A stretch of 64,000 nt of DNA from Candidatus Kerfeldbacteria bacterium (GTDB lineage: Bacteria > Patescibacteriota > Patescibacteriia > UBA9570 > XYC2-FULL-38-9), in assembly GCA_016182555.1 (NCBI GenBank), contig JACPGJ010000008.1, positions 455,411 through 519,410 of the forward strand. Reading direction: 5' to 3'. A program made the translations under genes and the position numbers. Below the pieces are notes generated by a model. The model saw nothing but the letters and a program-made list of their open reading frames with translations. It was not told the origin of the DNA and did not search any database. Shown in pieces: positions 7,404 through 63,244 of this stretch; position 1 is the first letter of the stretch; each line of letters starts with the position of its first letter.

Positions 7404-7419
7404 GAATTGAATGAAATTT

Positions 7420-17914: not shown

Positions 17915-17983
17915 ATATTAACGCTATAGTGTATATAGCGGATTATAGCCGATTATAGCGGAAAATGCAAATATGCCCTATTT

Positions 17984-29896: not shown

Positions 29897-29917
29897 AATG
29901 TGCTTGTGGAGGTTGTG

Positions 29918-46961: not shown

Positions 46962-47007
46962 TGTGGTGTATTTAATACTATAGTGAAAAAAGTATATCAG
47001 AAATAGA

Positions 47008-48270: not shown

Positions 48271-48346
48271 ATTTGAATTTTATGTTATTTTTACATATAT
48301 TTCAAGTATACTTGAATTTTATGCATCTGTCAATGAATACATAACT

Positions 48347-48375
48347 TTGACACAAGAAATATTGGGGGTATGATA
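48347..48375 (+). promoter_or_regulatory. sigma-70-type promoter TTGACA-N16-TATGAT
   Basis: TTGACAcaagaaatattgggggTATGAT about 70 nt upstream of the RelA/SpoT-like gene. Confidence 0.4.
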
Positions 48376-48446
48376 AAATTATGAAATACTGATGTAGTAT
48401 ACAGAAGTCGAATAATTTATTTTTTTATTCTTAGAAATAAGCCAAA

Positions 48447-49502
48447 ATGTCATTCGCGAAACCATCAAAAGTGTCCAGAAGTCGAATAAATAAAGCCGGT
48501 AAAACTCTTAAAAAAGAGATTATTAATTCAGATTTTGAATCTGCAGTAAAGTTAGCTGATAATTGGAGAGCGTGTCATGCCTATCCCATTAATACCTTCC
48601 AATCAACATTGAGAACCAAGCTTCGAAAATATCAAAATGAACCTATCGTAGCGCAACGTCTTAAACGCATGCCAACAATTATAGATAAACTGCAACGATA
48701 TCCAAACATGCAGCTAACAACAATGCAAGATATTGGAGGTATTAGGGCAATTCTAGGATCAATCGAAGATGTTTATAAACTAGCAAAAGACTACAGAGAG
48801 AACAAACGCCTTCCTCATGAACTTTATAATGAGAATAATCATATTCAGACTCCGAGAAATGAAGATGGCTATCGTAGTTTGCATCTAATGTACAAATACC
48901 GAAATCCACAAGCAAAAGAATATGATGGTCTACGAGTAGAGCTACAAATACGTACAAAAACCCAACATATTTGGGCTACAGCAGTTGAAACTATGGGAAC
49001 ATTTCTAGGACAAGCGCTTAAATCAAGACAGGGGGACAAAGACTGGCTCGATTTTTTTGCCACAGTATCATCTGCATTTGCTTGCATTGAGAAAACACCA
49101 GTATTACCTAGACATCAAAACATGACAAAACTAGAAATATTTAAGGCGGTTGCAAACACAGAAAAAAAACTCGGCGCATTAGAAAAAATGAATGCATTCT
49201 ATAAAGCCGCAGATGAAATCACAGGAAAACGCAAAAGTGAAGGGTCATCGTATCATCTAATAATACTAAACTCATTAGAAAAAACTGTTGAAGTAAAACC
49301 ATATAGTCGAGATGAGTTCAAAAAGGCAGTTGCAGATTACGCTCAAATTGAAGCTGAGGCAGTGAAGGGGAAAAAAATCGAACCAGTTCTCGTATCTGCT
49401 GGTCCATTAAGCACGCTAAAACGCGCATATCCCAACTTTTTCCTTGATATTTCTGAATTCTGTAAAGCTGTAGCAGAAATAGTAGATAAAACAAAAAAGT
49501 AA
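48447..49502 (+). CDS. standalone RelA/SpoT synthetase-domain protein (toxSAS-like), 351 aa
   Basis: Rel/Spo nucleotidyltransferase motifs DIGGIRAI, GYRSLHL, ELQIRTKTQHIWATAVETMG; basic N-terminus KVSRSRINKAGKTLKK; ~130-aa C-terminal extension; AT-rich. Confidence 0.75.
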   Translation: MSFAKPSKVSRSRINKAGKTLKKEIINSDFESAVKLADNWRACHAYPINTFQSTLRTKLRKYQNEPIVAQRLKRMPTIIDKLQRYPNMQLTTMQDIGGIRAILGSIEDVYKLAKDYRENKRLPHELYNENNHIQTPRNEDGYRSLHLMYKYRNPQAKEYDGLRVELQIRTKTQHIWATAVETMGTFLGQALKSRQGDKDWLDFFATVSSAFACIEKTPVLPRHQNMTKLEIFKAVANTEKKLGALEKMNAFYKAADEITGKRKSEGSSYHLIILNSLEKTVEVKPYSRDEFKKAVADYAQIEAEAVKGKKIEPVLVSAGPLSTLKRAYPNFFLDISEFCKAVAEIVDKTKK

Positions 49503-49550
49503 AAAGAGCCGGCGAGATGCCGACCCTTTTTATTTTCTGCGACTCAAAAT

Positions 49551-51689
49551 TTATTCTTCGTCTTCAGTGGCGACTGAACCTCCACGCGCTTCAATCACTT
49601 CTTTGGCCACATTCTTTGGCACTTCAGCATATTTCTCGAATTCCATGGAATAGTTTGCACGACCTTGAGACATCGAACGAAGGCTGGTCGCATAACCAAA
49701 CATTTCGGCCAATGGGACTAAGGCACGCACAACTTTCACAGTTCCGCGGTCGGTCATTTCCTGAATTTGTCCACGTTTAGAATTGATATCGCCCATCACA
49801 TCACCCATGAACTGTTCGGGAGTCATCACTTCTACTTTCATAATCGGTTCCAACAATACTGGGTCGGCTTTACGTGCCGCATTACGGAACGCTTTTGAAC
49901 CCGCAATTTTGAACGCCGCTTCTGAAGAGTCGACTTCATGGTACGAACCATCAAGCAAGGTGACGCGAATATCTAACAATGGATAGCCAGCCAAAATACC
50001 GCGATCCAGTGCTTCACGAATACCTTTTTCAACAGCAGGAATGTATTCATTTGGAATAGATGCTCCTTTAATCGCATTCTTGAATTCAAAATGTTCAACC
50101 TCTTCACCCTCTTCCACTTCGCTCTCCAACACCTGTAATGGTTCAACTTTCAATACAACATGACCATATTGACCGCGACCACCAGTCTGTTTCACATACT
50201 TCTCTTCTCCTTCTGCGGAGCGTTTAATCGTTTCTTTATAAGCCACCTGTGGTTTACCGGCAGTGGCTTCCACCCCAAATTCGCGCTTCATGCGTTCAAT
50301 AATCACTTCCAAATGCAGTTCACCCATACCAGCCAAAATAGTTTGATTGGTTTCTTCGTCTGAACGCACACGCAAGGATGGGTCTTCATCTGTCAGGCGC
50401 GCGATAGCCATACCCATTTTTTCTTGGTCAGCTTTAGTTTTCGGTTCAATGGCAATAGAGATCACCGGTTCTGGTGCGATAATTGGTTCCAAAATAATTG
50501 GATGATCTTCATCGCATAATGTGGTGCCAGTTTTTGCATCTTTCACACCGACTGCTGCGGCGATATCACCGGCATGAATTTCACTAATTTCTTCACGAGA
50601 ATTTGCATGCAAACGTACCAAACGCGAGATGCGTTCTTTTTTACCTGTCGCCATGTTGAGCACATACGAACCCGATTTCAATACGCCGGAATAGACGCGA
50701 ATGAAAATGAGTTTGCCCACAAATGGATCTGAAGCAATTTTGAAAGCAAGTGCTGCCAATGGTTCGCCATCTTCTGGTTTACGAGAAATTTTTTGTTCTA
50801 AATCGTCTGGGTCTGAACCAACCGTTGGTGGAATGTCGAGTGGAGATGGCAAATACGCAACCACCGCATCCAACATAAACTGCACGCCTTTGTTTTTGAG
50901 CGCTGAACCGCAGAGTACTGGAACAACGTTGTTTGCAATCACGGCTTGGCGCAATACTCGGTGAATATCTGCTTCAGATGGTTCATTGCCTTCCAAGTAC
51001 GCGTTCATGAGCGCTTCATCATTTTCGACAATCGCTTCAATGAGCTGTGTGCGGTACATGGCTGCGCGTTCTTTTTCTTCTGCCGGAATGTCTACTTCTT
51101 CAAATTCACGACCCATTTCATCTTTATAGATCACGGCTTTTTGACGAATGAGATCGATGATGCCTTGGAATGTATCAGCCGCACCAATAGGCAGCTGAAT
51201 TGGATGCGCGTTTTTGGTGAGCCGGTCATGGATCATCCCCAAATCTTTGTAGAAATCTGCACCTGTGCGATCCATTTTGTTAATAAAACACATGCGAGGA
51301 ACTTTGTATTCTTCTGCATAATGCCAGTTAGTTTCGGATTGCGGTTCCACACCGGCAACACCGTCGAATACCACCACCGCGCCGTCGAGCACGCGCAGAG
51401 AACGCTTCACTTCTACGGTAAAGTCGATGTGGCCAGGAGTATCGATGAGGTTGATTTTATGCTCTTTCCAAAAACAGGTGGTCGCTGCAGCGGTAATGGT
51501 GATACCACGTTCTTGTTCCTGTTCCATCCAGTCCATGGTTGCTTCACCTTCATGCACTTCACCAATTTTGTGAGTCTTGCCGGTGTAATACAACACCCGT
51601 TCAGACACCGTCGTTTTTCCGGCGTCGATGTGTGCAATGATACCGATGTTCCGCGTATCTTGTAATGGATATACTTTTTCTTCAGACAT
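49551..51689 (-). CDS. fusA: elongation factor G
   Basis: 712 aa; [17 protein letters not shown]. Confidence 0.97.
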
Positions 51690-51703
51690 ATATTGTGTGT
51701 ATG

Positions 51704-52168
51704 TTAAGCGAAGTGAGCAAAGGCACGGTTAGATTCTGCCATGCGTTGCACATCTTCTTTCTTCTTCATTGCCGCACCTTCATTGCGGCTCGCATCCATC
51801 AGTTCCAACGCGAGTTTTTCGCGCATTGGTTTACCGGCACGGGCTGATGCAGCTTCAATGATCCAACGAGATGCTAATGTGAAGCGACGTTCTGGGCGCA
51901 CTTCAACTGGCACCTGATAATTCGCCCCACCAATACGGCGAGCACGTACTTCCAATGATGGCGACACATTTTGCATCGCTTTCATCCACACATCATAGCC
52001 TGGTTCACCGGTTTTCTTTTCAATGTAGTCAAAGGCACCATAGACAATTTTGGTTGCCACGGTTTTTTTGCCACGTTGCATGATGTAGTTAATAAATTTC
52101 GAAACTTGTGTTGATTTATATCGTGGGTCTGGCGCGACATTGCGTTTTGGAGCTTGTTTACCTCTCAT
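51704..52168 (-). CDS. rpsG: 30S ribosomal protein S7
   Basis: 154 aa; S7 signature; downstream of rpsL. Confidence 0.92.
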
Positions 52169-52194
52169 ATCTTTATTGGTTCAGTGTAGTTAAA

Positions 52195-52614
52195 TTATTT
52201 CTTTGGGCGTTTTGCGCCATACTGGGAGCGACTTTGCATTCGTTTTTCTACGCCTTGCGTATCATAGACTCCACGAACAATACGATAGCGAACACCTGGT
52301 AGGTCTGGCACGCGACCACCTTTAATCAACACAATGCTGTGCTCTTGCAAGTTGTGTCCTTCTCCAGGAATATATGCCGTTACTTCCATTCCGTTGGATA
52401 AACGGACACGAGCAATTTTTCGCAGAGCGGAGTTTGGTTTCTTTGGTGTGGTGGTGGTGACTTTCACACAAACGCCACGTTTAAAGGCCGCACCTTTTGG
52501 CAGCTTCTTTCGTTTACGATGAAGGGCATCGAAGGTGGATTGAAGGGCTGGGGTTTTGGATTTTCTCTTGGCTGTACTGCGCCCTTTGCGCACCAATTGA
52601 TTCATTGTTGGCAT
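52195..52614 (-). CDS. rpsL: 30S ribosomal protein S12
   Basis: Trimmed to [12 protein letters not shown]; [10 protein letters not shown]. Confidence 0.92.
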
Positions 52615-52845
52615 GGAAATGCAAATTAAAAATAAAGAATGATCGTTATCATTCATTCACGATTGAAACAGTTTACAGAGTATGATCTTCTCAGTTCATT
52701 GAAGGTCACATCCAGGAAACATTGATACATATTTTTTCAAGCCTGTCAGCCATGACAAACTCGAGGAACCGAAGCGATTATAAAATATGTATAAAATATT
52801 GTCAACCGATATAAAATATGATACTATACAAATTAATATATTCTT

Positions 52846-53094
52846 ATGGGTACAGAAATATTTCCAAAAATTCTTTTCTTCATTCAATTTGTGGTTGGCA
52901 CCATCGGTGTGGTCACATTGCTCACTGTGCTGATTTCATTTATCAGCCTGCTGCGTCACCGTAACGATAAAAAAATGATCACCCAAATGCGTGAACAAAT
53001 TGTGAGCGGTTTGATCGCGTTTATTATTATTCTCATTGTTTACGTGCTCTTCAGCGGCATTGGTCCAGCATTTCGTGTCCTCTTTTCAAAGTAG
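52846..53094 (+). CDS. small two-TM membrane protein
   Basis: 82-aa hydrophobic ORF; no motif recognised. Confidence 0.35.
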   Translation: MGTEIFPKILFFIQFVVGTIGVVTLLTVLISFISLLRHRNDKKMITQMREQIVSGLIAFIIILIVYVLFSGIGPAFRVLFSK

Positions 53095-53114
53095 CGCGAC
53101 GTGTAAAACTGGTG

Positions 53115-53741
53115 TTAGAAAATAAGTTGCAACGTCAGGTTATAGAAAAATTCGAAGAGACTGGCGATAAATCGGTCGCCAAAAAAAACGAGGGCGAGCA
53201 ACAACCACATGCCATAGCGTTCGAGGAACAGCACAATGTCTGGGCGTTTGTGGCCAATAAATGTATAAAGCAGTTTAGCACCATCGAGTGGTGGAATGGG
53301 AATGAGGTTAAACACCGCCAACAAAATATTCACTTGAATCAAAATAATAAAGAACACAATCATTAAATTATCTGGCGCGAAATCGCCAAAACGGTAAATG
53401 ATACTAAGGGCGGTGCCGATAACAACCACCACAAGGGTGTTAGCAATTGGCCCAGCCAGCGCCACCAGCGCCGGACCAAACCGTTTATATTTCAAGTTAT
53501 ATGGGTTAAATGGGGTTGGTTTTGCCCAACCAAACCCAGCAACCACCAGTAAGAAAAAACCCAACCAGTCAATGTGCGCTAACGGGTTTAATGTGAGACG
53601 ACCTTCATATTCTGCGGTTTTGTCTCCTTGCAAACGACCAGCAAAGGCGTGGGAAAATTCATGAATCGTCAGCGCAAGGATCACCGCCATCACCCATAAG
53701 ACAAAATAGATTGGCCGTTCTAATAAATCATTAATAAGCAT
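53115..53741 (-). CDS. site-2 protease family metalloprotease (peptidase M50)
   Basis: 208 aa; HEFSHA zinc motif and FNLIPIPPLDG (LDG motif). Confidence 0.7.
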   Translation of the reverse strand: MLINDLLERPIYFVLWVMAVILALTIHEFSHAFAGRLQGDKTAEYEGRLTLNPLAHIDWLGFFLLVVAGFGWAKPTPFNPYNLKYKRFGPALVALAGPIANTLVVVVIGTALSIIYRFGDFAPDNLMIVFFIILIQVNILLAVFNLIPIPPLDGAKLLYTFIGHKRPDIVLFLERYGMWLLLALVFFGDRFIASLFEFFYNLTLQLIF

Positions 53742-53838
53742 AAAACGTGAATGTGAATTGACAAATTTTTTAACCGTCGCTATAATCTGAAAACTGCTGA
53801 AGAAGTATCAACCTTCATTATTACGATAATATCTGCTT

Positions 53839-54015
53839 ATGTCAAAAGTCTGTGATATCTGCGAACGCGGATACTTAAAAGGGAATTCACGCTCTCACTC
53901 TAATATTGCGACTATCAAGCGCCAACAGGTGAACTTGCAAAGCGCAACCATCGAAGGCAAACGAGTGAAAGCCTGCACCCGCTGCATCCGCACCGTCGCC
54001 AAAAACGCTCAATAA
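53839..54015 (+). CDS. rpmB: 50S ribosomal protein L28 (58 aa, below ORF-track cutoff)
   Basis: MSKVCDICERGYLKGNSRSHSNIATIKRQQVNLQSATIEGKRVKACTRCIRTVAKNAQ; L28 pattern; followed by an intrinsic terminator. Confidence 0.8.
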   Translation: MSKVCDICERGYLKGNSRSHSNIATIKRQQVNLQSATIEGKRVKACTRCIRTVAKNAQ

Positions 54016-54020
54016 AAATA

Positions 54021-54050
54021 CCCGCTCTCTGTAGCGGGAATTTTTTTATT
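54021..54050 (+). terminator. rho-independent terminator after rpmB
   Basis: cccgc-tctctgta-gcggg followed by aaTTTTTTTaTTTT. Confidence 0.65.
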
Positions 54051-54210
54051 TTCGATTTTGATTTTCATAAAATGAAGAGACGGCGCTAGAAAGTTATCCA
54101 CAGTCGAATTTATCTCTATCCTTAGCTAAAAATGATATTCGGCGAAAAATAGACGGCTGCACTTAGCCAATAACATAGTGGACTTTTTGCTATATCCGCG
54201 CATATACTCT

Positions 54211-54347
54211 ATGTACCGCTCTCAACCCGGACACGACAACGAATCCTGGTTTGTACATCTACTATTGAATCCCGCCAGTTACTGAGAGCGTCGGTTGAAC
54301 TGTTGTGCGTTTGTGCAGCAAATACAAACCGACGCTTTCTCTTTTTT
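54211..54347 (+). promoter_or_regulatory. candidate attenuator leader: 24-codon ORF plus alternative antiterminator/terminator hairpins
   Basis: cgctctca (54217-54224) can pair with tgagagcg (54283-54290), or gagagcgtcggtt can pair with aaccgacgctttctc followed by TTTTTT (54284-54347); mini-ORF MYRSQPGHDNESWFVHLLLNPASY ends at a TGA inside the switch segment. Confidence 0.35.
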
Positions 54348-54392
54348 CTTCATTTCTATATACTAAGTATAATCTACTAATAATACGTTTTT

Positions 54393-55982
54393 ATGAAAAG
54401 AAAAAATATTATCTCCTTTTGTGCCATATTGAGCATTATAGGATTACTATCCGCGTACTATCTTTACACCAGCAAGGGTTGTGGAGTATCTTCAAAAATA
54501 TGTATCGAGTCTCAACGTATAAGTATACAAATTGATATTCACAAAATTGGAAACAATGGAGTAGTAACATTTGGTGTTGGTTTAACAGATAATACCGGTA
54601 CTCGATTAACAGGAACAGAACGCGATTTTCATGAACAATGGAATTTTGGTGATGAAACATCACAACCAATTCAAGAGGCCCATGCTGATGGAGCTTTGCC
54701 CACATACGAAGCAAGCTACGAAAAAAAATATAGATATACAAAACCCGGAACATATACTGCATACATGCAAATGTTAGATGCAGAAAATGAAGTGCTGCGA
54801 AAATCAAATACTATTACCGTCACAATTCCGGAATCTTCATTCACTACAGCAGCGGAAACGACAACAGACGCTACAGATAGCGCAACACAACCAGAAGAGC
54901 AACGCGGTACACTCTTCTATGCCACAAATACAAAAAAACAACTCCTTATTTCTACCTATAACCCTGATACACAAGAGACACCAACTACCCAAACCATCCC
55001 GTTTGAAGAACAGATAAACCAAACCGGTAGAAATTCTTCCGGTGGAAACGATGCGGTTCAATTCAACCCCACAACACAGGAAATATTTATTTCTACACAA
55101 GGCAAAAGTGAATCAGCCTTTGAAAATTGCATAAATACAGATGGAACCTGCACCTCGCGTATATACAAAATCACTGCCAACAGCACAACACCAACTATTC
55201 TGTACGAATCAGAAAATCCACCAATCAATTGGGTAGTCAACCCTTATGATGATTCGTTGCTACTCAGTTCAACCGTTGAGGGAAAACAGATACTCACAAA
55301 ATTGAATGCGCAAGATGGTTCGGTGGTGTTTACTCAGGAATATATTATTCCCAAAAATACTGGTCTTAAAAATCTTGTGCTCAGCAATGATGGGAAAATA
55401 CTCTACCAAGCTTCGATAGAATCAGAAGATGGAAAAGCAATCAACGAAACTCTCCGTTTACGTGAATTTGATACCACAACCGGCGAGCTTACAGAAGTAG
55501 AAATATTTCAATTCAACTCAATTGACGCAACAACCACTATTTCTCCTAATAACAAATGGATTGCATTTTATGTAAACGCCTACGAAGCGCCACAATTAGT
55601 CATATGGGAGATTAAGGGGAAACAACCGCCTTCAATAAATCCATATCCATACACATCAAAAACAACGGGAGAAATTAGTAATTTCAATCTTTCCTGGTCT
55701 GGTGACAGCAAACGTCTATTCTACATGCGTGCTGATGGTTTAGTGTATTTCGACACCACAACCGGAACACATTCATTTGTCACAACAAGTAAAGAACGCA
55801 GAGAAACGCCATTCGTGTTAGAAGCAACGGGCGCCGAATCAGAAAACTATGTCTTCTATGTTTCTTCTGTAGACAGAACCATTGTACTGTACAACACCGC
55901 AATAGGAAAATATATCACCACGCCATTTTCTATGGTGCAAGATAATGAATCAGTGAATATTAACGGAGTCGCCTGGTATTAA
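54393..55982 (+). CDS. membrane-anchored extracellular protein with N-terminal PKD-like domain
   Basis: 529 aa; N-terminal TM; WNFGDETSQ...YTKPGTYTAYMQMLD PKD-like motif; long Thr/Asn-rich C-terminal region. Confidence 0.7.
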   Translation: MKRKNIISFCAILSIIGLLSAYYLYTSKGCGVSSKICIESQRISIQIDIHKIGNNGVVTFGVGLTDNTGTRLTGTERDFHEQWNFGDETSQPIQEAHADGALPTYEASYEKKYRYTKPGTYTAYMQMLDAENEVLRKSNTITVTIPESSFTTAAETTTDATDSATQPEEQRGTLFYATNTKKQLLISTYNPDTQETPTTQTIPFEEQINQTGRNSSGGNDAVQFNPTTQEIFISTQGKSESAFENCINTDGTCTSRIYKITANSTTPTILYESENPPINWVVNPYDDSLLLSSTVEGKQILTKLNAQDGSVVFTQEYIIPKNTGLKNLVLSNDGKILYQASIESEDGKAINETLRLREFDTTTGELTEVEIFQFNSIDATTTISPNNKWIAFYVNAYEAPQLVIWEIKGKQPPSINPYPYTSKTTGEISNFNLSWSGDSKRLFYMRADGLVYFDTTTGTHSFVTTSKERRETPFVLEATGAESENYVFYVSSVDRTIVLYNTAIGKYITTPFSMVQDNESVNINGVAWY

Positions 55983-55998
55983 AATCGACAACTATTGA

Positions 55999-56346
55999 TT
56001 GAGAAAATGTATGAAAAATAAAAAATGGTTTAAGGTTCTTGTTGTATTTGTAATCATTATTGTTATTATAGCGATTATTATTTTTTTAGGATTTCAAAAA
56101 CATACGCTGAACACTACAGTGCTCTCTTGCACTGAAAAAAATCTCGTAACAACAACAGGAAAATATCGCTTTCCACCGCAGTGGGGATTAGAAGGATACA
56201 AAATTCTTGTTCATCCTCAACCAGGAGGAATGTTTGATGCGATTTATCCAAATCAAATATGTAATAGTGAATCAAATTTCGTTCATGAAATCATCGCTAT
56301 AGAATACACGGGGTTGGGTTATATTACAGCGATTTACGTTCGTTAA
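55999..56346 (+). CDS. small membrane-anchored hypothetical protein
   Basis: 115 aa; N-terminal TM (VLVVFVIIIVIIAIIIFLGF). Confidence 0.45.
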   Translation: MRKCMKNKKWFKVLVVFVIIIVIIAIIIFLGFQKHTLNTTVLSCTEKNLVTTTGKYRFPPQWGLEGYKILVHPQPGGMFDAIYPNQICNSESNFVHEIIAIEYTGLGYITAIYVR

Positions 56347-56368
56347 TTTTTATGGGGTATTTGAATTT

Positions 56369-56827
56369 ATGAAAATGAAAATTGTATCCACGATAGGTTC
56401 GATATTTATCATCATCGCTCTACTACTCTCTTACTATTTATATACTGGCAGAAGCTGCGGTGTATCTTCAAAAATATGTATAGAATCACGAAAAATAAGT
56501 GTGGGTACGAGTGTGGAAAGAATTGGAAAAAATGGAAAAGTGATCTTTAATATCGGCTTAATAGATAATACCCGCACATATGACATTGACATGCAACTAC
56601 GTGATGAATGGAATTTTGGTGATGAGAATTCTACAACGCAATTAAGCGAGGAAGTACATACCGGTAGAATGATGCCAGATTATTTAATTGCCAGCTATAC
56701 AAAAGAATATACCTACACCAAGCCAGGAACATATACCGTTTTATTGAAAATCATTGATGCTACACACCACACAACATACACAGCAGAACCACTGAGCGTT
56801 ACGATTCCCGAATCTGCATTCAAGTAA
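56369..56827 (+). CDS. PKD-like domain protein, paralog of the N-terminus of 54393..55982
   Basis: 152 aa; aligns to the first ~150 aa of the upstream gene (LLSxYYLYTxxxCGVSSKICIESxxIS...WNFGDE...YTKPGTYTV...TIPES). Confidence 0.65.
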   Translation: MKMKIVSTIGSIFIIIALLLSYYLYTGRSCGVSSKICIESRKISVGTSVERIGKNGKVIFNIGLIDNTRTYDIDMQLRDEWNFGDENSTTQLSEEVHTGRMMPDYLIASYTKEYTYTKPGTYTVLLKIIDATHHTTYTAEPLSVTIPESAFK

Positions 56828-56848
56828 AAAAGCTGAACACTAAAATAT

Positions 56849-57460
56849 TTACGCGCTCGCTTCAGCAAAACGAGCGCTGACCACTTTCCAATCAATCACG
56901 TTGAAAAAGGCTTTGATATAGTCCGCTCGGTTCACGCCGTAATCCAGCATGTACGCATGTTCAAACACATCGAGAATCAACAGCGGCACACCGCCTGCCA
57001 AGTGGCCAAGGTCGTGTTCGTTAATCCAGACATTGAATAAACGCTTCGCTTGTGGGTCGTAATAAAGAATGGCCCAACCAATGCCGCGCATACTTGCCGT
57101 CGCAATAAAATCTTTTTCCCAAGTTTCATACGCACCAAAATCTTCAACCAATTTTTTGTGCAACGAATTTTCTACATCATTTGTTTGTGGCTCTTGTGTC
57201 ATGTTCCCAAAATAGAGTTCATGCAAGCGCATGCCGTTGAACTCCCAACCGAAACGGCGTTTCAATTCAGCGTATTGCGGCGAAGTGGGATCGAGCGTTT
57301 TTAATAAATCACTCACTGCATTCGTATTTTTCACATAGCCTTGATACAGCTTGAAATGATTTTCCAATAATTGATTGCTAAAGCCCGGAAGGCCGAGCAA
57401 TGATGCATAGTCTTTTGCTTCGTATAACATAGGCGTGAATAAATAATTAAATTTTTCCAA
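56849..57460 (-). CDS. Fe/Mn superoxide dismutase
   Basis: 203 aa; C-terminal DVFEHAYMLDYGVNRADYIKAFFNVIDW signature. Confidence 0.85.
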   Translation of the reverse strand: MEKFNYLFTPMLYEAKDYASLLGLPGFSNQLLENHFKLYQGYVKNTNAVSDLLKTLDPTSPQYAELKRRFGWEFNGMRLHELYFGNMTQEPQTNDVENSLHKKLVEDFGAYETWEKDFIATASMRGIGWAILYYDPQAKRLFNVWINEHDLGHLAGGVPLLILDVFEHAYMLDYGVNRADYIKAFFNVIDWKVVSARFAEASA

Positions 57461-58052
57461 CTAAATCCAAACCCGGTTTGAGCGTTTTTTCGCCTGGCTT
57501 CCAATTTGCTGGGCACACTTCGGAGCCGTGTTCACGCACAAACTGCGCCGCTTGCAACTTGCGCAATAATTCAGTACTACTACGGCCAATACTATTGTCA
57601 TGGACTTCATACGCTTTCAACACGCCATCGGGGTCGATAATAAATGAACCACGCAACGATAATCCTTCTGCAGGAATATAGGTGCCAAACGCTTTGCACA
57701 ATTTTCCAGTTGGGTCAGCGACCATGGGGAAAGTGATTTTTTTGATCGCTTCAGATTCATCGTGCCATGCTTTGTGAACAAACACCGTATCTGTACTCAC
57801 GCTCAACACTTCAGCATTCAGTTTTTGAAATTCCGGGTACAATTCCGCCATTTCTTTTAGTTCCGTCGGGCAGACAAACGTAAAATCAGCCGGGTAGAAA
57901 AACAACACTAACCATTTACCACTATAATCATTTAGCGTGATCTGTTTGACTTGTTCTTCATGGAAGGCTTCAAATTCCATCGTGCCCAGATGACCATGGC
58001 CGAGTTCACTCACCCGCTGACCGATGGAAATAGAACCAGAATTATTACACAT
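57447..58052 (-). CDS. 2-Cys peroxiredoxin (AhpC/Prx1 family)
   Basis: 201 aa; peroxidatic FTFVCPTEL. Confidence 0.85.
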   Translation of the reverse strand: MCNNSGSISIGQRVSELGHGHLGTMEFEAFHEEQVKQITLNDYSGKWLVLFFYPADFTFVCPTELKEMAELYPEFQKLNAEVLSVSTDTVFVHKAWHDESEAIKKITFPMVADPTGKLCKAFGTYIPAEGLSLRGSFIIDPDGVLKAYEVHDNSIGRSSTELLRKLQAAQFVREHGSEVCPANWKPGEKTLKPGLDLVGKI

Positions 58053-58227
58053 ATCGTATTTTGGCTAATCATTAATCTCTCCTTCCCAGTATAGCAACGG
58101 CTTCAAAAAAGTCGAGCTGATCACTTGCAAACTAATCATGAGACCCCCTTGCATTGCAACACTATTCAGCCTATAATAAATTAAGACGTCCCCACCCTTT
58201 GTGGGTTTTATTATTTTCTTTTTTGCT

Positions 58228-58638
58228 ATGGATGAGGACGTTAAATGGTTACTACAAAAATTGGTTACCTGGACAAAACTCAAGCTGAAAATACATATTT
58301 TACAAGATACTCATCTTGTTTACTTTCACGAAAGAGAAATCTGGTGGTGTTCCCTAGGCATAAATATAGGATATGAACAAAACGGAAAAAATCAGTATTT
58401 TGAACGACCAGTGTTAGTGGTAAAAAAATTCAACAGATATTTACTATGGGCAGTTCCCTTAACCAGTAAACAAAAATCGGGAAAATTTTATTATGAAACA
58501 TGGTATGAAGGAAAAAAATACTCTATCATTTTGTCTCAAATGAGAGCAATCAGTAGCAAACGACTGTTGAGAAAAATACGCACTGTACCGCAGTCAGAAT
58601 TTACTGAGGTAAAAAAACAGATAAAACTCTTTTTATAA
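58228..58638 (+). CDS. MazF/PemK-fold endoribonuclease toxin homolog (solitary)
   Basis: Track ORF 58201 starts at a GTG inside a hairpin and is trimmed to the ATG at 58228; EREIWWCSLGINIGYEQNGK...ERPVLVVKKFN...LWAVPLTSK...SQMRAISSKRLLRKIRTV matches the MazF/PemK pattern. Confidence 0.6.
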   Translation: MDEDVKWLLQKLVTWTKLKLKIHILQDTHLVYFHEREIWWCSLGINIGYEQNGKNQYFERPVLVVKKFNRYLLWAVPLTSKQKSGKFYYETWYEGKKYSIILSQMRAISSKRLLRKIRTVPQSEFTEVKKQIKLFL

Positions 58639-58666
58639 AAAACGATCTCCCGCGTGAAAGCGGGAG
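58632..58666 (-). terminator. rho-independent terminator downstream of nth
   Basis: Minus strand: ctcccgc-tttcac-gcgggag then aTcgTTTTTTaT. Confidence 0.5.
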
Positions 58667-58761
58667 TCTCGGAGCCCAAAGGCCATTTGTATAATAAGTA
58701 TATATCTATTTGTTCCTGTAGTCAATAGTGAAAATATTTTACTGAAAATCACTACGAAACA

Positions 58762-59409
58762 TTATATTTTCTTTACATTTTTCTTCCCAGTGGGGCAAAT
58801 ATCGTTCAACGGGCACTGCGCACAGAGCGGACGCGGTTTGCAAATCGCGCGGCCGTGCATAATCATAAATTCATTCACGTCGAGGTAATCTTTGGGCGGA
58901 AATAATTTTTCTAAATCGGCACTAATCTTGTTTGGCGAATCATGCTTCGTTAAACCGAGCCGCGGAGCAAGACGCCGCACATGTGTATCCACGGCTACCC
59001 CAACGTGTTGGCCATGCGCCTTGGCCATAATTAAATTCGCTGACTTATACGCAACACCCGGTAGCAACAATAATTCTTCGCGCGTGCGAGGAACTTCTCC
59101 GTTAAAACGCGCAACCAACAACTCCCCTATTCCTTTCAAATATCGCGCCTTCGATTTATAAAACGTCACCGAACCGATCTCTTGTTCAAGCGTGTGCAGG
59201 TCGGCTTTCGCGTAATCTGCTGCTGTACGGTACTTGCGGAATAACGTTGGCGTGACCATGTTAATACGTTTATCCGTGCACTGCGCAGAAAGAACCACGG
59301 CAATAACTAATTCCAGTGCGTTGCTCCACTGCACAAAGGTGTCGGTTTGGCGCGTGTACAACCCGCGAAGCCGACGCAATATTTCGTGTGCGCGTTCACG
59401 CTTGGTCAT
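58762..59409 (-). CDS. nth: endonuclease III
   Basis: Trimmed to MTKRERAHEIL; HhH-GPD motif and 4Fe-4S cluster CKPRPLCAQCPLNDIC. Confidence 0.85.
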   Translation of the reverse strand: MTKRERAHEILRRLRGLYTRQTDTFVQWSNALELVIAVVLSAQCTDKRINMVTPTLFRKYRTAADYAKADLHTLEQEIGSVTFYKSKARYLKGIGELLVARFNGEVPRTREELLLLPGVAYKSANLIMAKAHGQHVGVAVDTHVRRLAPRLGLTKHDSPNKISADLEKLFPPKDYLDVNEFMIMHGRAICKPRPLCAQCPLNDICPTGKKNVKKI

Positions 59410-59414
59410 ACTGG

Positions 59415-60827
59415 TTATGCCATTTCGCTCAGCAATGCCGCCATGCAGCAAGTTAATTTTTTCACCGCCGCGATATCGAGGGCTTCATTCACAGCGTGTG
59501 CATTTCCGTTCGGACCAAGTACACCCGTAATCACAAATTGCGTTTGCGGAAAACGTTCGCCTAACATATTCATAAAGGGAATCGAACCGCCCTCGCCCAT
59601 GAACGCCGGTGCGGCACCAAAATATTCTTGTGAAGCGCTGGTGAGTGCCGCGGCCAATACGGAAGAACTTGTTGGAGCATTCCACCCGTTCACCGCACTG
59701 TCAATTTCAAATGAAACACGCGCACCATAGGGCGCATCGGCTTCCAAAATTTCTTTCAAGCGCGCGGCGGCAATAGCGCTGTCACAGCGTGGTGGAATAC
59801 GCAAAGATAATTTCAACGCAGTCCATGGGCGCATGACATTTCCGGCTTGGTGCATCGGCGGAAATCCATCTGCGCTAATCACTTCCATGCCCGGTTTCCA
59901 CGTACGGTTCAATAATAACTCAACGATGTCGGTAGTGAGAGGGTGTGCACCAGAAACAAATGGATATTGTGCCACCAACTCAGGCGCTAAAATTTTTGCG
60001 GTTTCTCCCGCTTCACTCACGCGATGCGGTGGAATGTCTACAAAAAACACGGGATCCAAAATTTCACCAGTGATCGAATTTTCAATGCGCGACAACAACT
60101 CGCGTGCAATACGAAACGTCGATGGCACAACACCAGTGGCTTCTCCAGAATGAACACCATGCTCCAACATTTCTACTCGCAACGTTCCTGCGACAATGCC
60201 GCGCAGAGATGTGGTTAACCACAACTGATCATAGTTCCCTGCACCAGAATCTAAACAAATAATAAGCTGCGGGGTACCAATACGTTCTGCGAGTGCATCA
60301 ACATAAAACGGTAAATCCGTACTGCCACTTTCTTCATCGCATTCAATAATAATCACACAACGTAGATGACGCGCACCGGCTTGTTGCACCGCTTTGATTG
60401 CCGCGATGCATGCAAATACGGCATAGCCATCGTCCACACTGCCTCGGCCATACAATTTTCCGTCACGCACAAGTGGTGAGTACGGCGCAAATCCTTCTGC
60501 CCACCCATCCAACGGAGGCTGTTTATCAATATGACCATAGAGCAATACTGTTTGGCTCGCGTCCCCTTCTATGTCTATATACATCAGCGGCGTTCGTCCT
60601 TCCAACCGTTCCACACTCACACTTAGGCCTGATACGTTTTGGGCTTTCACCCAATTCAGCACCAAGTCCATGGCCGCATCGATGTGACCATTCGTTTGCC
60701 AGTCCGGATCATATTCCGGTGATTGGTTTGGGATGCGAATATAATCTTGAAGGGTCGGCATCACCGCCTCTTCCCAATACTGATTCACAAAATCGCGAAA
60801 ATTTTTCATATAAATTACGCTTAACAA
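59415..60827 (-). CDS. M20-family metallopeptidase (dipeptidase-like)
   Basis: 470 aa; LLYGHIDKQPP, GRGSVDDGYAV, IIIECDEESGS metal-ligand blocks. Confidence 0.8.
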   Translation of the reverse strand: MLSVIYMKNFRDFVNQYWEEAVMPTLQDYIRIPNQSPEYDPDWQTNGHIDAAMDLVLNWVKAQNVSGLSVSVERLEGRTPLMYIDIEGDASQTVLLYGHIDKQPPLDGWAEGFAPYSPLVRDGKLYGRGSVDDGYAVFACIAAIKAVQQAGARHLRCVIIIECDEESGSTDLPFYVDALAERIGTPQLIICLDSGAGNYDQLWLTTSLRGIVAGTLRVEMLEHGVHSGEATGVVPSTFRIARELLSRIENSITGEILDPVFFVDIPPHRVSEAGETAKILAPELVAQYPFVSGAHPLTTDIVELLLNRTWKPGMEVISADGFPPMHQAGNVMRPWTALKLSLRIPPRCDSAIAAARLKEILEADAPYGARVSFEIDSAVNGWNAPTSSSVLAAALTSASQEYFGAAPAFMGEGGSIPFMNMLGERFPQTQFVITGVLGPNGNAHAVNEALDIAAVKKLTCCMAALLSEMA

Positions 60828-60923
60828 TATCGCTTAGTATAGCACAGGAATAAAAAATGACCCGTTGCGTGGTTCACGCCTCGAGCCATTTTTCTCCTCC
60901 TCAGATATCAGAATGAGCGAACG

Positions 60924-61169
60924 TTATTGCTTGTCTTTTGTACCCATACCGGCGCACATTTTACAATCGCCTTTATGCATACCAACCAAATAGAGCGCAG
61001 ATAAACCAACTAATATATAGATAAGGCGTGAAAGCATGGCGTCTTGGCCGCCAAATAATTCACCAATATCCCATTTAAATAAACCAACGAGCAACCAGTT
61101 CAACCCGCCAATAATGACGAGCAAGAACGTGATCATGTGCATTCCTTTTTTATTTTGCATATTTTCCAC
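60924..61169 (-). CDS. DUF378-family small membrane protein
   Basis: 81 aa; GGLNWLLVGLFKWDIGELFGG pattern; GGAGG ribosome-binding site. Confidence 0.6.
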   Translation of the reverse strand: MENMQNKKGMHMITFLLVIIGGLNWLLVGLFKWDIGELFGGQDAMLSRLIYILVGLSALYLVGMHKGDCKMCAGMGTKDKQ

Positions 61170-61461
61170 CTCCTCTCAATGTTATATTCCTATAGTTGAG
61201 TATACCACGAATACGTATAGTGGTCATCTTTAGTGGGTGGAACGGGATCTCTCTTCTATACACAACGGGTTGTTTACAGAAGAGAGACGAGGAGCGATGG
61301 TTGCAGAAACCGGCGTGACTCAATATCGTCCCTCAATGAAGTGCGTCTTATCAGACGACCCTCATGCGTCCGCGTTGGAGATCGCGGGCGTCTTCCTCAG
61401 TTGGCTTTCGCGTCCCTGAAGCGTTTGAATGTTTGCGGGTGTGGGTTTCTCGGGCGGTTGA

Positions 61462-62589
61462 TCAGTAGCTGGCGATGTCGTCGGGATTATTATTCTCCAC
61501 GACGCAGTCCGTCATTGAGGGCTCGGCATTGCGAAGATACATTCCTCCACCACTTTCGCCCGCCGAATTTTCTGTCACTTCAACCCGAGTGAGCGTCGGG
61601 TTTGCGTGATCAATGTAGACCCCACCACCCCACAAATCAGCCTCGTTGCTGTGAATGGTGAGGTCTGTAAGTTCAACTCCCGCATCCTGTCCCACGTAGA
61701 TTCCTCCACCTCCGGCCACAGCGTAATTGTCCATGAAGGAAGAATTCGTCACCACGCCGGATGAATAGCGACCGAAAGACACCCCCATGCCATAGTAGCC
61801 GACGTTGGAGTTGAAAGAACATTCAGTCACCTCAACATCAGCATCCTGATTGACATGAATACCCGCGCCGTTATAGGTCACGAAGTTCTCGGCAAAAAAT
61901 GACTCTGTGACCGTCAGTTCAGCGTGTTCACCAGCATAGATACCACCTCCGTCGCCGTTGGCTACACACCAAGTGAATATGCTGTGCTGAAACGCAGCCC
62001 GCGTGAACTCGGTGTAGACACAACCTCCGTCGCCACCAGTGGTTGTAGTGGAGTTAGTGAAGGTGACGTTCCTAAAAGTTGGATCGGCATATTCCCCGAT
62101 CCAGACTAACCCGCCATTTCCGCTCTCTCCATTAGTCAGGGTAAACCCATCCACAACTCCATCTTCCGTATACGCTGTGAATGACATTACTCGTCCCAAG
62201 AACTGAGCGTCGATCGTCGTCACCTCGGCGCCTTTGCTGGAGAGCAGCGTGAGTGCCTTTCCTCCGAAATGCAGGTCGTGTTCGAGATACGTCCCTGGGC
62301 CCACTGAAACAGTGTCCCCATCGTTAGCCGCGTCGATCGCGGACTGGATAGTGACGTAGCAGTTTTCCTGCACAGCCACAGTTCCCGTGTCGCTCACGCC
62401 GTCACAGTTCTGGTCTACGCCATCGCATTCCTCTGCCGCACCGGGATGAATTTCCGGATTCGTGTCGTCGCAGTCGCCATCGTCCACGGTCCAGCCGTCC
62501 CCATCGATATCGGGATCGTCACAAGACGAAATCCCGCTCAACAGCGTGCAAACGCTCGAAAAAACAACGGTGAAAAACAGGTGCCTCAT
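61462..62589 (-). CDS. parallel beta-helix lipoprotein with N-terminal Cys/Asp-rich MopE-like motif, in a GC-rich insert
   Basis: 375 aa; signal plus lipobox LLSGISSC; DGDGWTVDDGDCDDTNPEIHPGAAEECDGVDQNCDG; repeated GGGIY/NxxxG beta-helix rungs; about 60% GC; GGAGG ribosome-binding site. Confidence 0.7.
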   Translation of the reverse strand: MRHLFFTVVFSSVCTLLSGISSCDDPDIDGDGWTVDDGDCDDTNPEIHPGAAEECDGVDQNCDGVSDTGTVAVQENCYVTIQSAIDAANDGDTVSVGPGTYLEHDLHFGGKALTLLSSKGAEVTTIDAQFLGRVMSFTAYTEDGVVDGFTLTNGESGNGGLVWIGEYADPTFRNVTFTNSTTTTGGDGGCVYTEFTRAAFQHSIFTWCVANGDGGGIYAGEHAELTVTESFFAENFVTYNGAGIHVNQDADVEVTECSFNSNVGYYGMGVSFGRYSSGVVTNSSFMDNYAVAGGGGIYVGQDAGVELTDLTIHSNEADLWGGGVYIDHANPTLTRVEVTENSAGESGGGMYLRNAEPSMTDCVVENNNPDDIASY

Positions 62590-62619
62590 GATTCACTCCT
62601 CCGCTGTGCTTCATTTCGG

Positions 62620-62646
62620 AATGTGGGAAAGAAATTCCCCCACATT
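62620..62646. promoter_or_regulatory. perfect 8-bp inverted repeat upstream of the beta-helix gene (candidate operator)
   Basis: aatgtggg-aaagaaattcc-cccacatt centred about 45 nt upstream of the start codon. Confidence 0.4.
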
Positions 62647-62773
62647 TTCGCGTTCTTGCGCACAGCAAAATACTATCCAGTGATGCATAGTACATTGCTA
62701 TAAACAAAAAAGCCTCTTAAACTGGGCTATCTTATATCGCAAAACAAATTTTTTGTCAATCGATGTCGTCTAG

Positions 62774-62844
62774 AGCGGGATACCAGAATCGAACTGGCGC
62801 CTCAACCTTGGGAAGGTCGCATACTACCACTATACTAATCCCGC
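62774..62844 (-). tRNA. tRNA-Gly (anticodon CCC)
   Basis: Minus strand gcgggattagtatagtggtagtatgcgaccttCCCaaggttgaggcgccagttcgattctggtatcccgct; cloverleaf with anticodon loop ttCCCaa. Confidence 0.8.
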
Positions 62845-63244
62845 ACGGTACATAATATTGTAGAGAATTCAGGAAAACATGCAAGAGCCGCTGTACTCGC
62901 CCCAAAAAACACAAAAGCCCGGACATGCCGGGTTCTTATGTGTGCTCTGCTGCTCTTATTCATCCAGGCTTCCTGCAATATAAGTGGGCTTATGCCGCCA
63001 CGACATCAGTGATGGGGCAGCACATCGCTGATACAGCATTTGTGCGAAAGGTTTAACGCCTTCGCGCAATAGTAGACAGCGCCTATTACCGCATGGGGTT
63101 CGCATCCACTCGCCAGCAAAAAAGCGGCAAGCAGATATATGAACCCTACAGGAAACGATTTGTCGAAGCTGGATGAATATGTTGTGCGAGCAGAGTGCCT
63201 TCACAAGGAAGGCATGGATATTATACATCGAAGGATCGAGTGCA

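Follow-up and report, generated by a model that had tools for sequence, protein, structure and literature searches.

Probable lateral acquisition of a predicted lipid-anchored β-helix protein beside tRNA-Gly(CCC) in a Candidatus Kerfeldbacteria genome

Introduction

The closest described relatives of the protein considered here are the 'MopE-related / parallel beta-helix repeat' lipoproteins (P0003, P0009, P0371; NCBI 'MopE-related protein'), an abundant, already annotated yet uncharacterised class from Myxococcota, Planctomycetota, Desulfobacterota and Pseudomonadota. These proteins share with our target a lipobox signal peptide, an acidic linker, a PF11617 module that abuts the β-helix N-cap (TIQxAIDAAxxGDxVxVxPGTY) and PMP-type coils. 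Chlamydial Pmps (TIGR01376/PF02415), which are adhesins, likewise carry GGG(I/V/M) and N-x-A repeats on a right-handed β-helix, and are autotransporters with a C-terminal β-barrel. PfbA of Streptococcus pneumoniae (3zpp/4mr0) is a surface β-helix adhesin that resembles the target at fold level only, as it has a C-terminal LPXTG sortase anchor and no MopE-like module. The Asp/Cys-rich motif DGDG...DC[DN]D...HPGAAE...DGVDxNCDG is also found near the N-terminus of the MopE*/CorA proteins of methanotrophs. In MopE*, the high-affinity Cu(I) site consists of two histidines and a Trp-derived kynurenine in the β-sandwich core, while the N-terminal stretch, disordered or cleaved in the crystal, plays at most a part in weak binding of Cu(II) (PMC3423442, PMC3912023). 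At the level of the locus, the nearest parallel is the tRNA-linked genomic island, in which cargo of foreign composition sits directly 3′ of a tRNA gene and differs in content between related genomes.

CPR bacteria rely on being physically attached to host cells, and few of the surface molecules that mediate this attachment are known. That genes are transferred into CPR genomes is already accepted. Here we describe a gene in a 64-kb stretch of DNA (the window, in what follows) from the groundwater MAG (43.5% GC) of a minute episymbiont, Candidatus Kerfeldbacteria (CPR/Patescibacteria). The EF-G encoded here shows 100% identity to a protein of a Kerfeldbacteria MAG (598,550-nt contig), and the target protein itself is deposited from that MAG. 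Kerfeldbacteria are described as particularly strongly host-attached (He et al. 2021, PMC7906910). We read positions 61235-62589 as a lateral acquisition that encodes a lipid-anchored surface β-helix, most likely an adhesin or glycan-binding rod, and give this reading a probability of roughly 0.65. The gene thus becomes a concrete candidate attachment molecule, laterally acquired and predicted to be lipid-anchored, at a locus that differs between related genomes, and it illustrates how reduced genomes may diversify their surface by gene capture. Because the protein class is abundant and annotated and transfer into CPR genomes is accepted, this credible but fairly ordinary instance of gene capture supplies a further example but no new principle. 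The earlier note on this DNA had missed that the host is a CPR bacterium, and that the gene directly adjoins the 3′ end of tRNA-Gly(CCC), where the content of the slot changes from one Kerfeldbacteria genome to the next.

Results

Architecture of the locus

The features of the locus, from high to low coordinates, are as follows.

62773-62844, minus strand: tRNA-Gly(CCC), found by ARAGORN and Rfam, its 3′ end facing the insert; conserved anchor of the variable slot
62731-62759, minus strand: candidate promoter TTGACA-17 nt-TATAAG, directly 3′ of the tRNA, by direct reading
62650-62713, minus strand: leader hairpin 1, a long imperfect stem, from RNA folding
62621-62645 (as DNA, 62620-62646), minus strand: leader hairpin 2, the palindrome AATGTGGG-N11-CCCACATT, which in RNA gives a 10-bp stem through G-U extension
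62596-62602, minus strand: ribosome-binding site GGAGGAG, 6 nt ahead of the ATG, by direct reading
61462-62589, minus strand: lipoprotein CDS of 375 aa, from the open reading frame list; the exact protein is present in NCBI and Logan
62521-62589, minus strand: predicted signal peptide with lipobox (residues 1-23, ...LSGISS|C23), by direct reading and a lipobox rule scan
62389-62520, minus strand: MopE-like module (residues 24-67) with DxDxDG-type loops DIDGDG and DQNCDG and Cys40/55/62
61486-62379, minus strand: right-handed parallel β-helix (residues ~71-368) with PMP-type GGG/N-x-A repeats
61288-61461, minus strand: non-coding GC-rich 3′ flank, 56.9% GC, part of the foreign segment
61248-61287, minus strand: strong 3′ hairpin at the distal GC boundary, with one G-U pair, pairing better on the minus strand and lacking a U tract
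60924-61169, minus strand: DUF378 (Pfam), lineage-specific cargo in the interval from tRNA-Gly to the conserved Nth gene
59415-60827, minus strand: M20 peptidase (Pfam), lineage-specific cargo in the same interval

In the organization that we propose, 61235-62589, with its one intact gene, would have entered a hypervariable slot immediately 3′ of tRNA-Gly(CCC) by lateral acquisition. Transcription would probably start near 62725, just 3′ of the tRNA, and pass through a structured leader of ~135 nt, with the palindrome folded as a hairpin in the RNA, before terminating at the strong hairpin (61248-61287). A type II (lipobox) signal peptide would direct export of the product, which a lipid on Cys23 would tether to the outer face of the cell membrane, there displaying, in order, a short acidic linker, one MopE-like DxDxDG module and a right-handed β-helix of ~300 residues with PMP-type repeats.

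Predicted export and lipidation

The CDS (MBI2411504.1, locus tag HYV32_06455) was deposited as a 'hypothetical protein'. Under a PROSITE-type rule for lipoproteins cleaved by SPase II, the n-region of the signal peptide is positive, the h-region carries no charge and the lipobox reads [LVI][ASTVI][GAS]C, its cysteine falling at position 15-35. The N-terminus of the target (MRHLFFTVVFSSVCTLLSGISSC) has R2 near its start, an uncharged h-region, [AGS] at -1 and Cys23 (MRHLFFTVVFSSVCTLLSGISS|C23), so that direct reading and the rule agree on the lipoprotein with lipobox LSGISSC described previously. Many close homologs likewise have an acidic linker after an N-terminal lipobox, and the canonical native lipoprotein start LMGAGC occurs within the window (~3001, minus strand), with another at a related Kerfeldbacteria locus (L085). 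Cys23 was also considered as a structural cysteine of the MopE-like module, but 47 of 76 homolog modules have no cysteine within 12 residues upstream of DGDG, and we therefore read it as the cysteine of the lipobox. The predicted mature protein is poor in Lys (2) and Arg (6) and has a pI of 4.05. P0250, the representative of the 90% cluster that contains the target, is an unrelated 54-aa protein and was set aside as a database artefact.

Fold and likely role

The stretch that follows the module matches PF13229 (Beta_helix, E 9.6e-16) and is modelled by AlphaFold2 as a continuous β-solenoid with a mean pLDDT of 90.2, confirming the right-handed parallel β-helix that had been read in this position. 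The POMP repeat TIGR01376 reaches 25.5 bits (cutoff 15), with PF02415 below its own cutoff. In contrast to the Pmp autotransporters, the protein ends after its last coil, at residue 375, without a barrel domain, and its predicted anchor is an N-terminal lipid; the latter also distinguishes it from the sortase-anchored PfbA.

Fold class and lifestyle make it most likely that the protein serves this host-attached bacterium in binding or attachment at the surface, as an adhesin or a glycan-binding rod, and is neither an enzyme nor a copper protein. Against an adhesin role, polysaccharide lyases or epimerases account for many of its best structural neighbours. The β-helix might accordingly belong to a surface-anchored, polysaccharide-acting enzyme of pectate-lyase fold (a lyase, epimerase or glycosidase) that degrades or remodels host capsule or EPS and is no passive adhesin, an alternative that we consider unlikely. 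The target is only 13-19% identical to PL6 alginate lyases and AlgE/AlgG mannuronan C5-epimerases, and no HMM of these families scores above cutoff; NosD PF05048 reaches 22.1 against 23.6, and TIGR04247 28.2 against 300. Reading of the target sequence revealed no AlgE-type DPHD-like catalytic motif.

Leader, palindrome and transcript ends

The candidate promoter was not listed by a consensus scan because its -10 hexamer ends in G instead of T. RNA folding of 62590-62730 (minus strand) yields -45 kcal/mol with a z of -3.46, and none of 200 shuffles folds as well. Hairpin 1 is specific to the minus-strand RNA, since its stem depends on G-U pairs. No Rfam family matched the leader.

The perfect 8-bp inverted repeat AATGTGGG-N11-CCCACATT exists as previously described, at 62620-62646. 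Repeats of this kind occur at 0.42 per kb in the window and in 86 of 2000 shuffles (4.3%) of the 183-nt leader, placing the palindrome only marginally beyond chance. The earlier note had placed an operator here, and a DNA site for a dimeric repressor of the gene, possibly part of a regulon, would fit a perfect repeat with an 11-bp spacer located 31 nt upstream of the ATG and seen in so few shuffled leaders. However, the suggested search for further copies retrieved neither a second palindrome nor an excess of half-sites in the 64-kb window, and the base rate of such repeats also speaks against an operator. The sole promoter-like element lies upstream of the palindrome, which would fall within the transcribed leader; there, G-U pairs lengthen it to an RNA stem of 10 bp, next to another hairpin that is strand-specific, and there is no adjacent regulator gene. 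An operator is thus improbable, and a hairpin in the mRNA leader accounts better for the palindrome.

At the other end, the two 19-nt arms of the hairpin at 61248-61287 show 89% complementarity, including the perfect outer 10 bp already noticed; counting itself, the window holds three non-overlapping hairpin-type repeats of this strength. A permissive Rfam scan of 61150-62900 returned the tRNA only, plus a meaningless miRNA match on the hairpin.

Composition, homologs and origin

A GC content of roughly 60% had been claimed for the insert, and this proved too high: the value is 53.9% for 61235-62660 and 54.0% for the CDS, with 60% reached only at 62200-62500. The compositional anomaly itself is sound. 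The segment is the most GC-rich 1.36-kb stretch of the window (average 43.4%, sd 3.8) and ranks 1-2 of 627 by tetranucleotide distance. Back-translation of the same protein with host codons (5000 trials) gave a GC of 47.2% and a GC3 of 40.1 ± 2.4%, with a maximum of 48.7%, whereas the observed values are 54.1% and 59.6%, respectively (z 8.2 for GC3). The codons of the signal peptide appear foreign too, because their GC3 is 0.65. The 5′ leader has 39.9% GC versus 56.9% in the 3′ flank, and tblastn with 120 homologs against 61170-61480 detected no C-terminal coding remnant in that flank (nothing below E 0.04).

Best homologs among 5.8 billion proteins are only 31-37% identical to the target, and an exhaustive HMMER search yielded 70,155 relatives, none closer in the β-helix; relatives at E ≤ 1e-30 number roughly 2,700. 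The named homologs come from Planctomycetota, Myxococcota, Desulfobacterales, Pseudomonadota and similar groups, with none from CPR, and one homolog locus has 70% GC; homologs are thus not confined to close relatives of similar GC, a restriction that had been named as one finding that would overturn a foreign origin. At 31-37% identity no donor can be named, myxobacterial or other, and the direction and age of the transfer would accordingly be read from composition. For the 29.9-kb ORF, with which the earlier note had proposed repeated capture from a high-GC donor, a homology search gave only the self-hit and marks that ORF as an ORFan. A viral origin was considered and rejected, as IMG/VR contains no relative of the gene and PHROG gave no match.

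In comparison with the MopE-related lipoproteins of high-GC diderms, the target is encoded in a 43% GC CPR genome, carries one module only, forms fewer coils and is missing a C-terminal region of ~100-250 aa. It could be a decaying or truncated copy, because at 375 aa it is shorter than most homologs (450-650 aa) and lacks that region.

Could the gene be native, its GC excess stemming from a composition rich in Gly, Asp, Ala and Thr or from codon selection? Amino-acid composition alone does lift the expected GC to the 47.2% given above, over a background of 43.5%, and GC at fourfold-degenerate sites is no outlier (z 0.96), the excess lying mainly at twofold sites. Yet GC3 stands 8 sd over the expectation from host usage, and expression bias does not explain this, since EF-Tu, EF-G, S7 and S12, which are highly expressed host genes, have a GC3 of ~0.41. 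The excess also extends into the non-coding 3′ flank (57% GC), no CPR protein is among the named matches, and the gene is absent from all five related Kerfeldbacteria loci. A native gene is therefore very unlikely. Composition beyond the amino-acid effect, absence from relatives and distant named homologs are the operational marks of horizontal acquisition, and as all three are found here, the foreign origin of the gene is well supported.

Assembly support

A chimeric join with a high-GC organism, through misassembly or misbinning, would also produce a GC-rich block, and the MAG does come from a complex groundwater community. The earlier note had asked for read support across both junctions. 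Logan contig SRR12113422_20494, assembled from one run, is 100% identical to the window over 51462-62802, including both GC boundaries, although the Logan and MAG assemblies may share reads and are not fully independent. By coordinate inference this contig reaches window position 46223. One of its ends falls inside the adjacent tRNA, which could favour an artefact; since the two ends lie in tuf and tRNA-Gly, however, it terminates in conserved genes and away from the GC shifts. An artefact would moreover imply that two joins, 1.4 kb from each other, were so precise as to leave an intact ORF preceded by a host-type RBS and leader. Because a second assembly is identical across both boundaries, chimerism is highly improbable.

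The Asp/Cys-rich module

Within the module, DIDGDGWTVDDGDCDDTNPEIHPGAAEECDGVDQNCDG matches Pfam PF11617 (Cu-binding_MopE) over residues 39-67, with an E of 3.8e-12 and 46.7 bits against a cutoff of 27. The motif DC[DN]D...PGAxE...DGxDx[DN]CDG is kept across homolog modules, placing the target in this family. From its motif the module is probably of a disulfide-stapled, Ca2+-binding DxDxDG type.

The earlier description of a MopE-like Cys/Asp module thus stands as to family, while metal binding in the manner of MopE was overstated. The module aligns to residues 3-54 of MopE* (2vov, E 3.4e-7), with a second, non-significant stretch; this is the N-terminal segment and not the copper site, and the β-sandwich core with its Cu(I) site has no counterpart in the target. 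A MopE/CorA-like role in copper acquisition, to which the name of the Pfam family and the match to 2vov might point, is effectively refuted by this alignment range.

The tRNA-Gly(CCC) slot

Relatives share a conserved frame running from tRNA-Gly to Nth/AhpC-Sod-M50-S12-S7-EF-G, within which the cargo next to the tRNA varies. Two related loci (L083 and L085) have the same tRNA-Gly(CCC) in the same orientation, and homology ends at the tRNA 3′ end. Their slots hold one secreted and one membrane protein (L083) and a 396-aa lipoprotein (L085). At a third locus (L087), two Fic genes sit beside a tRNA-Gly(GCC), and at a fourth (L092), where the tRNA is absent from the stretch fetched, a secreted fn3 protein is encoded upstream of the Nth gene. 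The stretch with DUF378 and the M20 peptidase (59415-61169) is missing from five related loci.

The locus differs from tRNA-linked genomic islands in several respects. Those mediated by an integrase have a tyrosine integrase next to the tRNA and, at their far boundary, directly repeat the tRNA 3′ end; here, no att-type direct repeat of that end (62773-62800) was found within 57.5-64 kb, and the flanking genes scanned include no integrase, transposase or other mobility gene. The cargo is also small, comprising a single gene, or ~3.3 kb if DUF378 and the M20 peptidase are counted.

We tentatively suggest that the slot 3′ of tRNA-Gly(CCC), upstream of Nth/AhpC-Sod-M50-rpsL-rpsG-fusA, could be a dedicated hotspot for 'surface-protein swapping', an idea that we hold as doubtful. 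Each lineage would carry a different exported or lipid-anchored protein there, inserted independently of an integrase and tuning attachment specificity; in the present genome it would have been captured from a high-GC diderm, which might be the bacterium's own host.

Co-transfer of the M20 peptidase with the lipoprotein gene was considered and rejected, as none of 160 M20-bearing loci has a homolog of the lipoprotein or of DUF378. An M20 gene does lie close to one lipoprotein homolog (locus L090), but this gene shows no relationship to the M20 gene of the window, whose best relatives are proteobacterial sequences with 45-55% identity.

Anatomy and composition of the lipoprotein gene

The one long ORF in the GC-rich interval 61235-62660 encodes a 375-aa protein, and the core reading of it as a foreign gene for an exported lipoprotein with a MopE module and a beta-helix holds. 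The gene and its upstream features are as follows.

61462-62589 (-): lipoprotein CDS, 375 aa (ORF list)
6 nt before the ATG (-): ribosome-binding site GGAGGAG (sequence reading)
62621-62645 (-): leader hairpin, 10-bp stem (RNA fold)
62650-62713 (-): long leader stem that needs G-U pairs (RNA fold)
62759-62731 (-): candidate promoter, TTGACA-17-TATAAG (sequence reading)
62773-62844 (-): tRNA-Gly(CCC), 184 nt upstream of the ATG on the same strand (tRNA search)

The architecture described in the earlier note, a lipoprotein with a MopE-like module and a beta-helix, is confirmed. The N-terminus, MRHLFFTVVFSSVCTLLSGISS directly before C, satisfies the lipobox rule in a rule scan. After the lipobox cysteine the protein reads DDPDIDGDGWTVDDGDCDDTNPEIHPGAAEECDGVDQNCDG, with a Pfam match to PF11617 (Cu-binding_MopE; 46.7 bits, cutoff 27), and the remainder matches PF13229 (Beta_helix; 58.2 bits, cutoff 25.9). 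A POMP repeat scores above the NCBIfam cutoff, the repeats being of PMP type, and an AlphaFold2 model built with 66 homologs (mean pLDDT 90.2, pTM 0.84) forms an unbroken beta-solenoid over residues ~71-368. The mature protein is strongly acidic (pI 4.05; 2 Lys, 6 Arg), and its module possesses two DxDxDG-type loops (D27-I-D-G-D-G32 and D59-Q-N-C-D-G64) and three cysteines. Its database entry, MBI2411504.1 (locus tag HYV32_06455), reads 'hypothetical protein [Candidatus Kerfeldbacteria bacterium]'; the style of the accession, like the 43% GC, would fit an origin in the groundwater work of He et al. 2021 (PMC7906910).

Although a GC content of roughly 60% had been proposed, this is too high: the interval has 53.9% and the CDS 54.0%, with 60% reached only within 62200-62500. 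The segment is the GC maximum of the window (43.5% overall; mean of 43.4%, sd 3.8, for its 1355-nt windows), and it ranks 1-2 of 627 by tetranucleotide distance. Its GC3 is 0.596, versus 0.394 ± 0.071 in fifty other ORFs (maximum 0.53). The amino-acid effect was split from codon choice by back-translating the protein 5000 times with window codon usage, yielding an expected GC of 47.2 ± 0.8% and GC3 of 40.1 ± 2.4% (maximum 48.7%). The gene itself has 54.1% and 59.6% (z 8.2 for GC3), with the caveat that fourfold-site GC taken alone falls in the host range (z 0.96). By this test, the Gly/Asp/Thr/Ala-rich protein accounts for roughly a third of the extra GC, and the other two thirds come from non-host codons, such as GAC (fraction 0.59 vs 0.26 in the host), TTC (0.61 vs 0.24), ATC (0.57 vs 0.20), CTG (0.35 vs 0.13) and GAG (0.43 vs 0.18). 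Translational selection does not account for this, since tuf, fusA, rpsG and rpsL, which are highly expressed in the host, have a GC3 of about 0.41. Between the stop codon and the 3' hairpin, 174 nt of non-coding DNA have 56.9% GC, against 39.9% in the 5' leader.

Assembly chimerism, raised earlier as what would undo this reading, is unlikely, although the Logan and MAG assemblies may share reads. The exact protein lies on a 16,580-nt contig of the Logan assembly of run SRR12113422 (SRR12113422_20494), the fetched part of which is 100% identical to window positions 51462-62802; judged from the coordinates, the full contig would cover 46223-62802. Both GC transitions (~61235 and ~62590) are spanned. 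The contig ends inside tuf (46223) and inside tRNA-Gly (62802), both conserved, and conserved sequences are typical break points of metagenome graphs; the breaks may reflect related strains co-existing in the sample.

Distant homologs in other phyla

In a search that covered 5.8 billion clustered proteins, the closest homologs over the full length were only 31-37% identical. Those with names belong to Planctomycetota, Myxococcota, Desulfobacterales, Thermodesulfobacteriota, Pseudomonadota, Eisenbacteria, Zixibacteria and Armatimonadetes, with no Patescibacteria among them. The protein's own 90%-identity cluster is missing from this search because the cluster representative (P0250) is a 54-aa protein of a JGI contig with no relation to it, a database artefact. 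An exhaustive HMMER search of 1.84 billion representatives returned 70,155 relatives (2,758 at E ≤ 1e-30), dominated by giant multi-cassette proteins that each repeat the unit of MopE-like module plus beta-helix many times. Named examples include 'MopE-related protein [Pseudomonadota]' and 'VCBS repeat-containing protein [Deltaproteobacteria]'. Higher identities in this list stem from the short module, the beta-helix remaining at about 31%. The class is very large and already annotated, yet uncharacterised.

One homolog locus has 70% GC and a GC3 of 91%. Of the proposed capture from a high-GC donor, the foreign gene for an exported lipoprotein stands, but the donor is unsupported, the relatives being just 31-37% identical. 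Many close homologs also start with a lipobox and an acidic linker (for example ...LLAAVGC followed by DDPLRLDGDGDGY in the homolog P0371), and the signal-peptide codons of the Kerfeldbacteria gene are of the foreign type (GC3 0.65); the export signal therefore most likely came along with the gene.

A hypervariable slot beside tRNA-Gly

EF-G (49551-51689) has a 100% match in a Candidatus Kerfeldbacteria MAG, and its next relatives, 85-70% identical, come from Kerfeldbacteria and other Patescibacteria. The comparison covered the fusA neighbourhoods of five related Kerfeldbacteria genomes (EF-G 76-80% identical). These share the block (Nth)-AhpC-Sod-M50-x-S12-S7-EF-G, with Nth at the matching position 68% identical in L087 and 59% in L092. 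Loci L083 and L085 carry tRNA-Gly(CCC) in the orientation seen in the window, L087 has tRNA-Gly(GCC) in its place, and L092 has no tRNA within the fetched stretch. Alignment similarity ends at the 3' end of tRNA-Gly.

Cargo beside the tRNA or upstream of Nth
Window: the 375-aa lipoprotein, DUF378 and an M20 peptidase
L085: 396-aa lipoprotein (LMGAGC; 3322-4512) and an oxidoreductase
L083: secreted 237-aa protein (4805-5518) and a membrane protein (5639-6259)
L087: two Fic proteins
L092: secreted fn3 protein, upstream of Nth (1102-2913)

The exported cargo proteins of L085, L083 and L092 have no kinship with one another or with the window's lipoprotein, and the five related loci encode no relatives of the lipoprotein, DUF378 or the M20 peptidase. 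Because the cargo differs in every genome, the lipoprotein gene sits in a hypervariable slot, at the end nearest the tRNA. No integrase, mobility gene or att-like repeat of the tRNA 3' end was found around this slot; it is not a classical integrative island. The interest of the gene lies in its CPR episymbiont host and its location in a tRNA-adjacent variable slot.

The M20 peptidase gene (59415-60827, minus strand, 49% GC) has best relatives 45-55% identical in GTDB genomes and JGI metagenomes. Because it is absent here in related Kerfeldbacteria and its named genome matches are mostly Woeseiaceae and Burkholderiales, it was probably acquired separately, from Proteobacteria. Among 160 loci with an M20 gene, not one carries a homolog of the lipoprotein or of DUF378 close to it.

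Structured flanks of the gene

On the mRNA strand, the 141-nt region before the ATG reaches a folding energy of -45 kcal/mol (z -3.46), matched by 0 of 200 shuffles. The perfect 8-bp inverted repeat at 62620-62646 exists as the earlier note had it; its proposed role as an operator is unsupported. Perfect 8-bp repeats with loops of 3-20 nt have a density of 0.42 per kb in the window and turn up in 4.3% of shuffled leaders, making the palindrome marginal, and no second copy, the hoped-for sign of a regulon, occurs in the 64-kb window. The repeat gains its 10-bp stem through G-U extension, and because dependence on G-U pairs is strand-specific, the leader structures point to RNA structure rather than a DNA operator. 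Directly after the tRNA, the near-consensus candidate promoter lacks the invariant last T and is absent from the promoter-scan list.

The downstream hairpin at 61248-61287 is present as described, among the strongest in the 64 kb and unique there. Its pairing is better on the minus strand, and no U tract follows, unlike at 62932-62918, where a canonical hairpin with a U tract ends the gene that lies upstream of the tRNA. The 61248-61287 hairpin marks the distal edge of the GC-rich DNA, and a promoter-like site for DUF378 comes after it.

A putative surface rod

The MopE likeness gives no support to a role in metal acquisition. Similarity is limited to residues 3-54 of MopE* (E 3.4e-7). In the MopE* crystal, the first 46 residues cannot be seen or have been cleaved off, and the first 24 contribute at most to weak Cu(II) binding (PMC3423442). 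The Cu(I) site of MopE*, two His and a kynurenine, lies in a core (PMC3423442, PMC3912023) that is absent from the Kerfeldbacteria protein. The DxDxDG loops suggest that the module may be a Ca2+-stabilised, disulfide-stapled spacer. As 47 of 76 homolog modules lack a Cys in the 12 residues upstream, Cys23 is not a conserved module cysteine, which leaves it available for lipidation. A gene of host composition at ~2680-3007 (minus strand) reads with a textbook lipoprotein start, MRKKSFASITVTLFVAGMVLMGAGC, which suggests that the host itself makes lipoproteins.

Kerfeldbacteria are reported to be strongly host-attached (PMC7906910). Together with the acidic mature protein, its PMP-type repeats, module and lipobox, this favours a lipid-anchored binding or attachment rod on the cell surface (probability about 0.55 within the acquired-gene reading). 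A surface polysaccharide-active enzyme ranks below it and seems improbable.

Other regions of the window

The patch at 29.9-30.5 kb (about 600 nt, 59% GC), attributed earlier to the same donor, contains one plausible gene.

29918-30364 (+): 148-aa protein with a signal peptide, GC3 0.72

This protein is an ORFan: among 5.8 billion proteins it matches only its own copy on a Logan contig, and Pfam and PHROG give no match; the long minus-strand ORF 29837-30544 looks spurious. The patch and the lipoprotein gene are alike in being GC-rich and exported, and no evidence ties the two to one donor.

An AT-rich PemK-family toxin gene (58201-58638, plus strand, 32-37% GC) lies between Nth and AhpC, which are directly adjacent in L087 and L092. 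Between Sod and the M50 peptidase, 54393-56827 encodes a PD40/PKD protein of 529 aa, a 111-aa protein and a PKD protein of 152 aa; this gap is empty or holds L28 in relatives. The three genes are one more insertion specific to the lineage, of proteins that look exported. The interval between fusA and tuf (46497-49502) holds genes for a RelA_SpoT-like protein, an AAA_14/DUF4143 ATPase and a cytidine/dCMP deaminase; tuf directly follows fusA in L083, L087 and L088, and other relatives have different insertions there. The AT-rich stretch 6800-8750 (about 33% GC), second most atypical in composition, may be another tRNA-adjacent variable region: beside tRNA-Glu (8214-8286) are a Fic/HTH gene (6343-7311), ORFs 7491-8129 and 8376-9704 with no Pfam match, and then an ECF-type sigma factor. 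Finally, 15377-19279 carries two paralogous class II aminoacyl-tRNA synthetase genes (tRNA-synt_2 plus OB anticodon domain; 462 and 431 aa) with a Fic-domain gene (16838-17914) between them.
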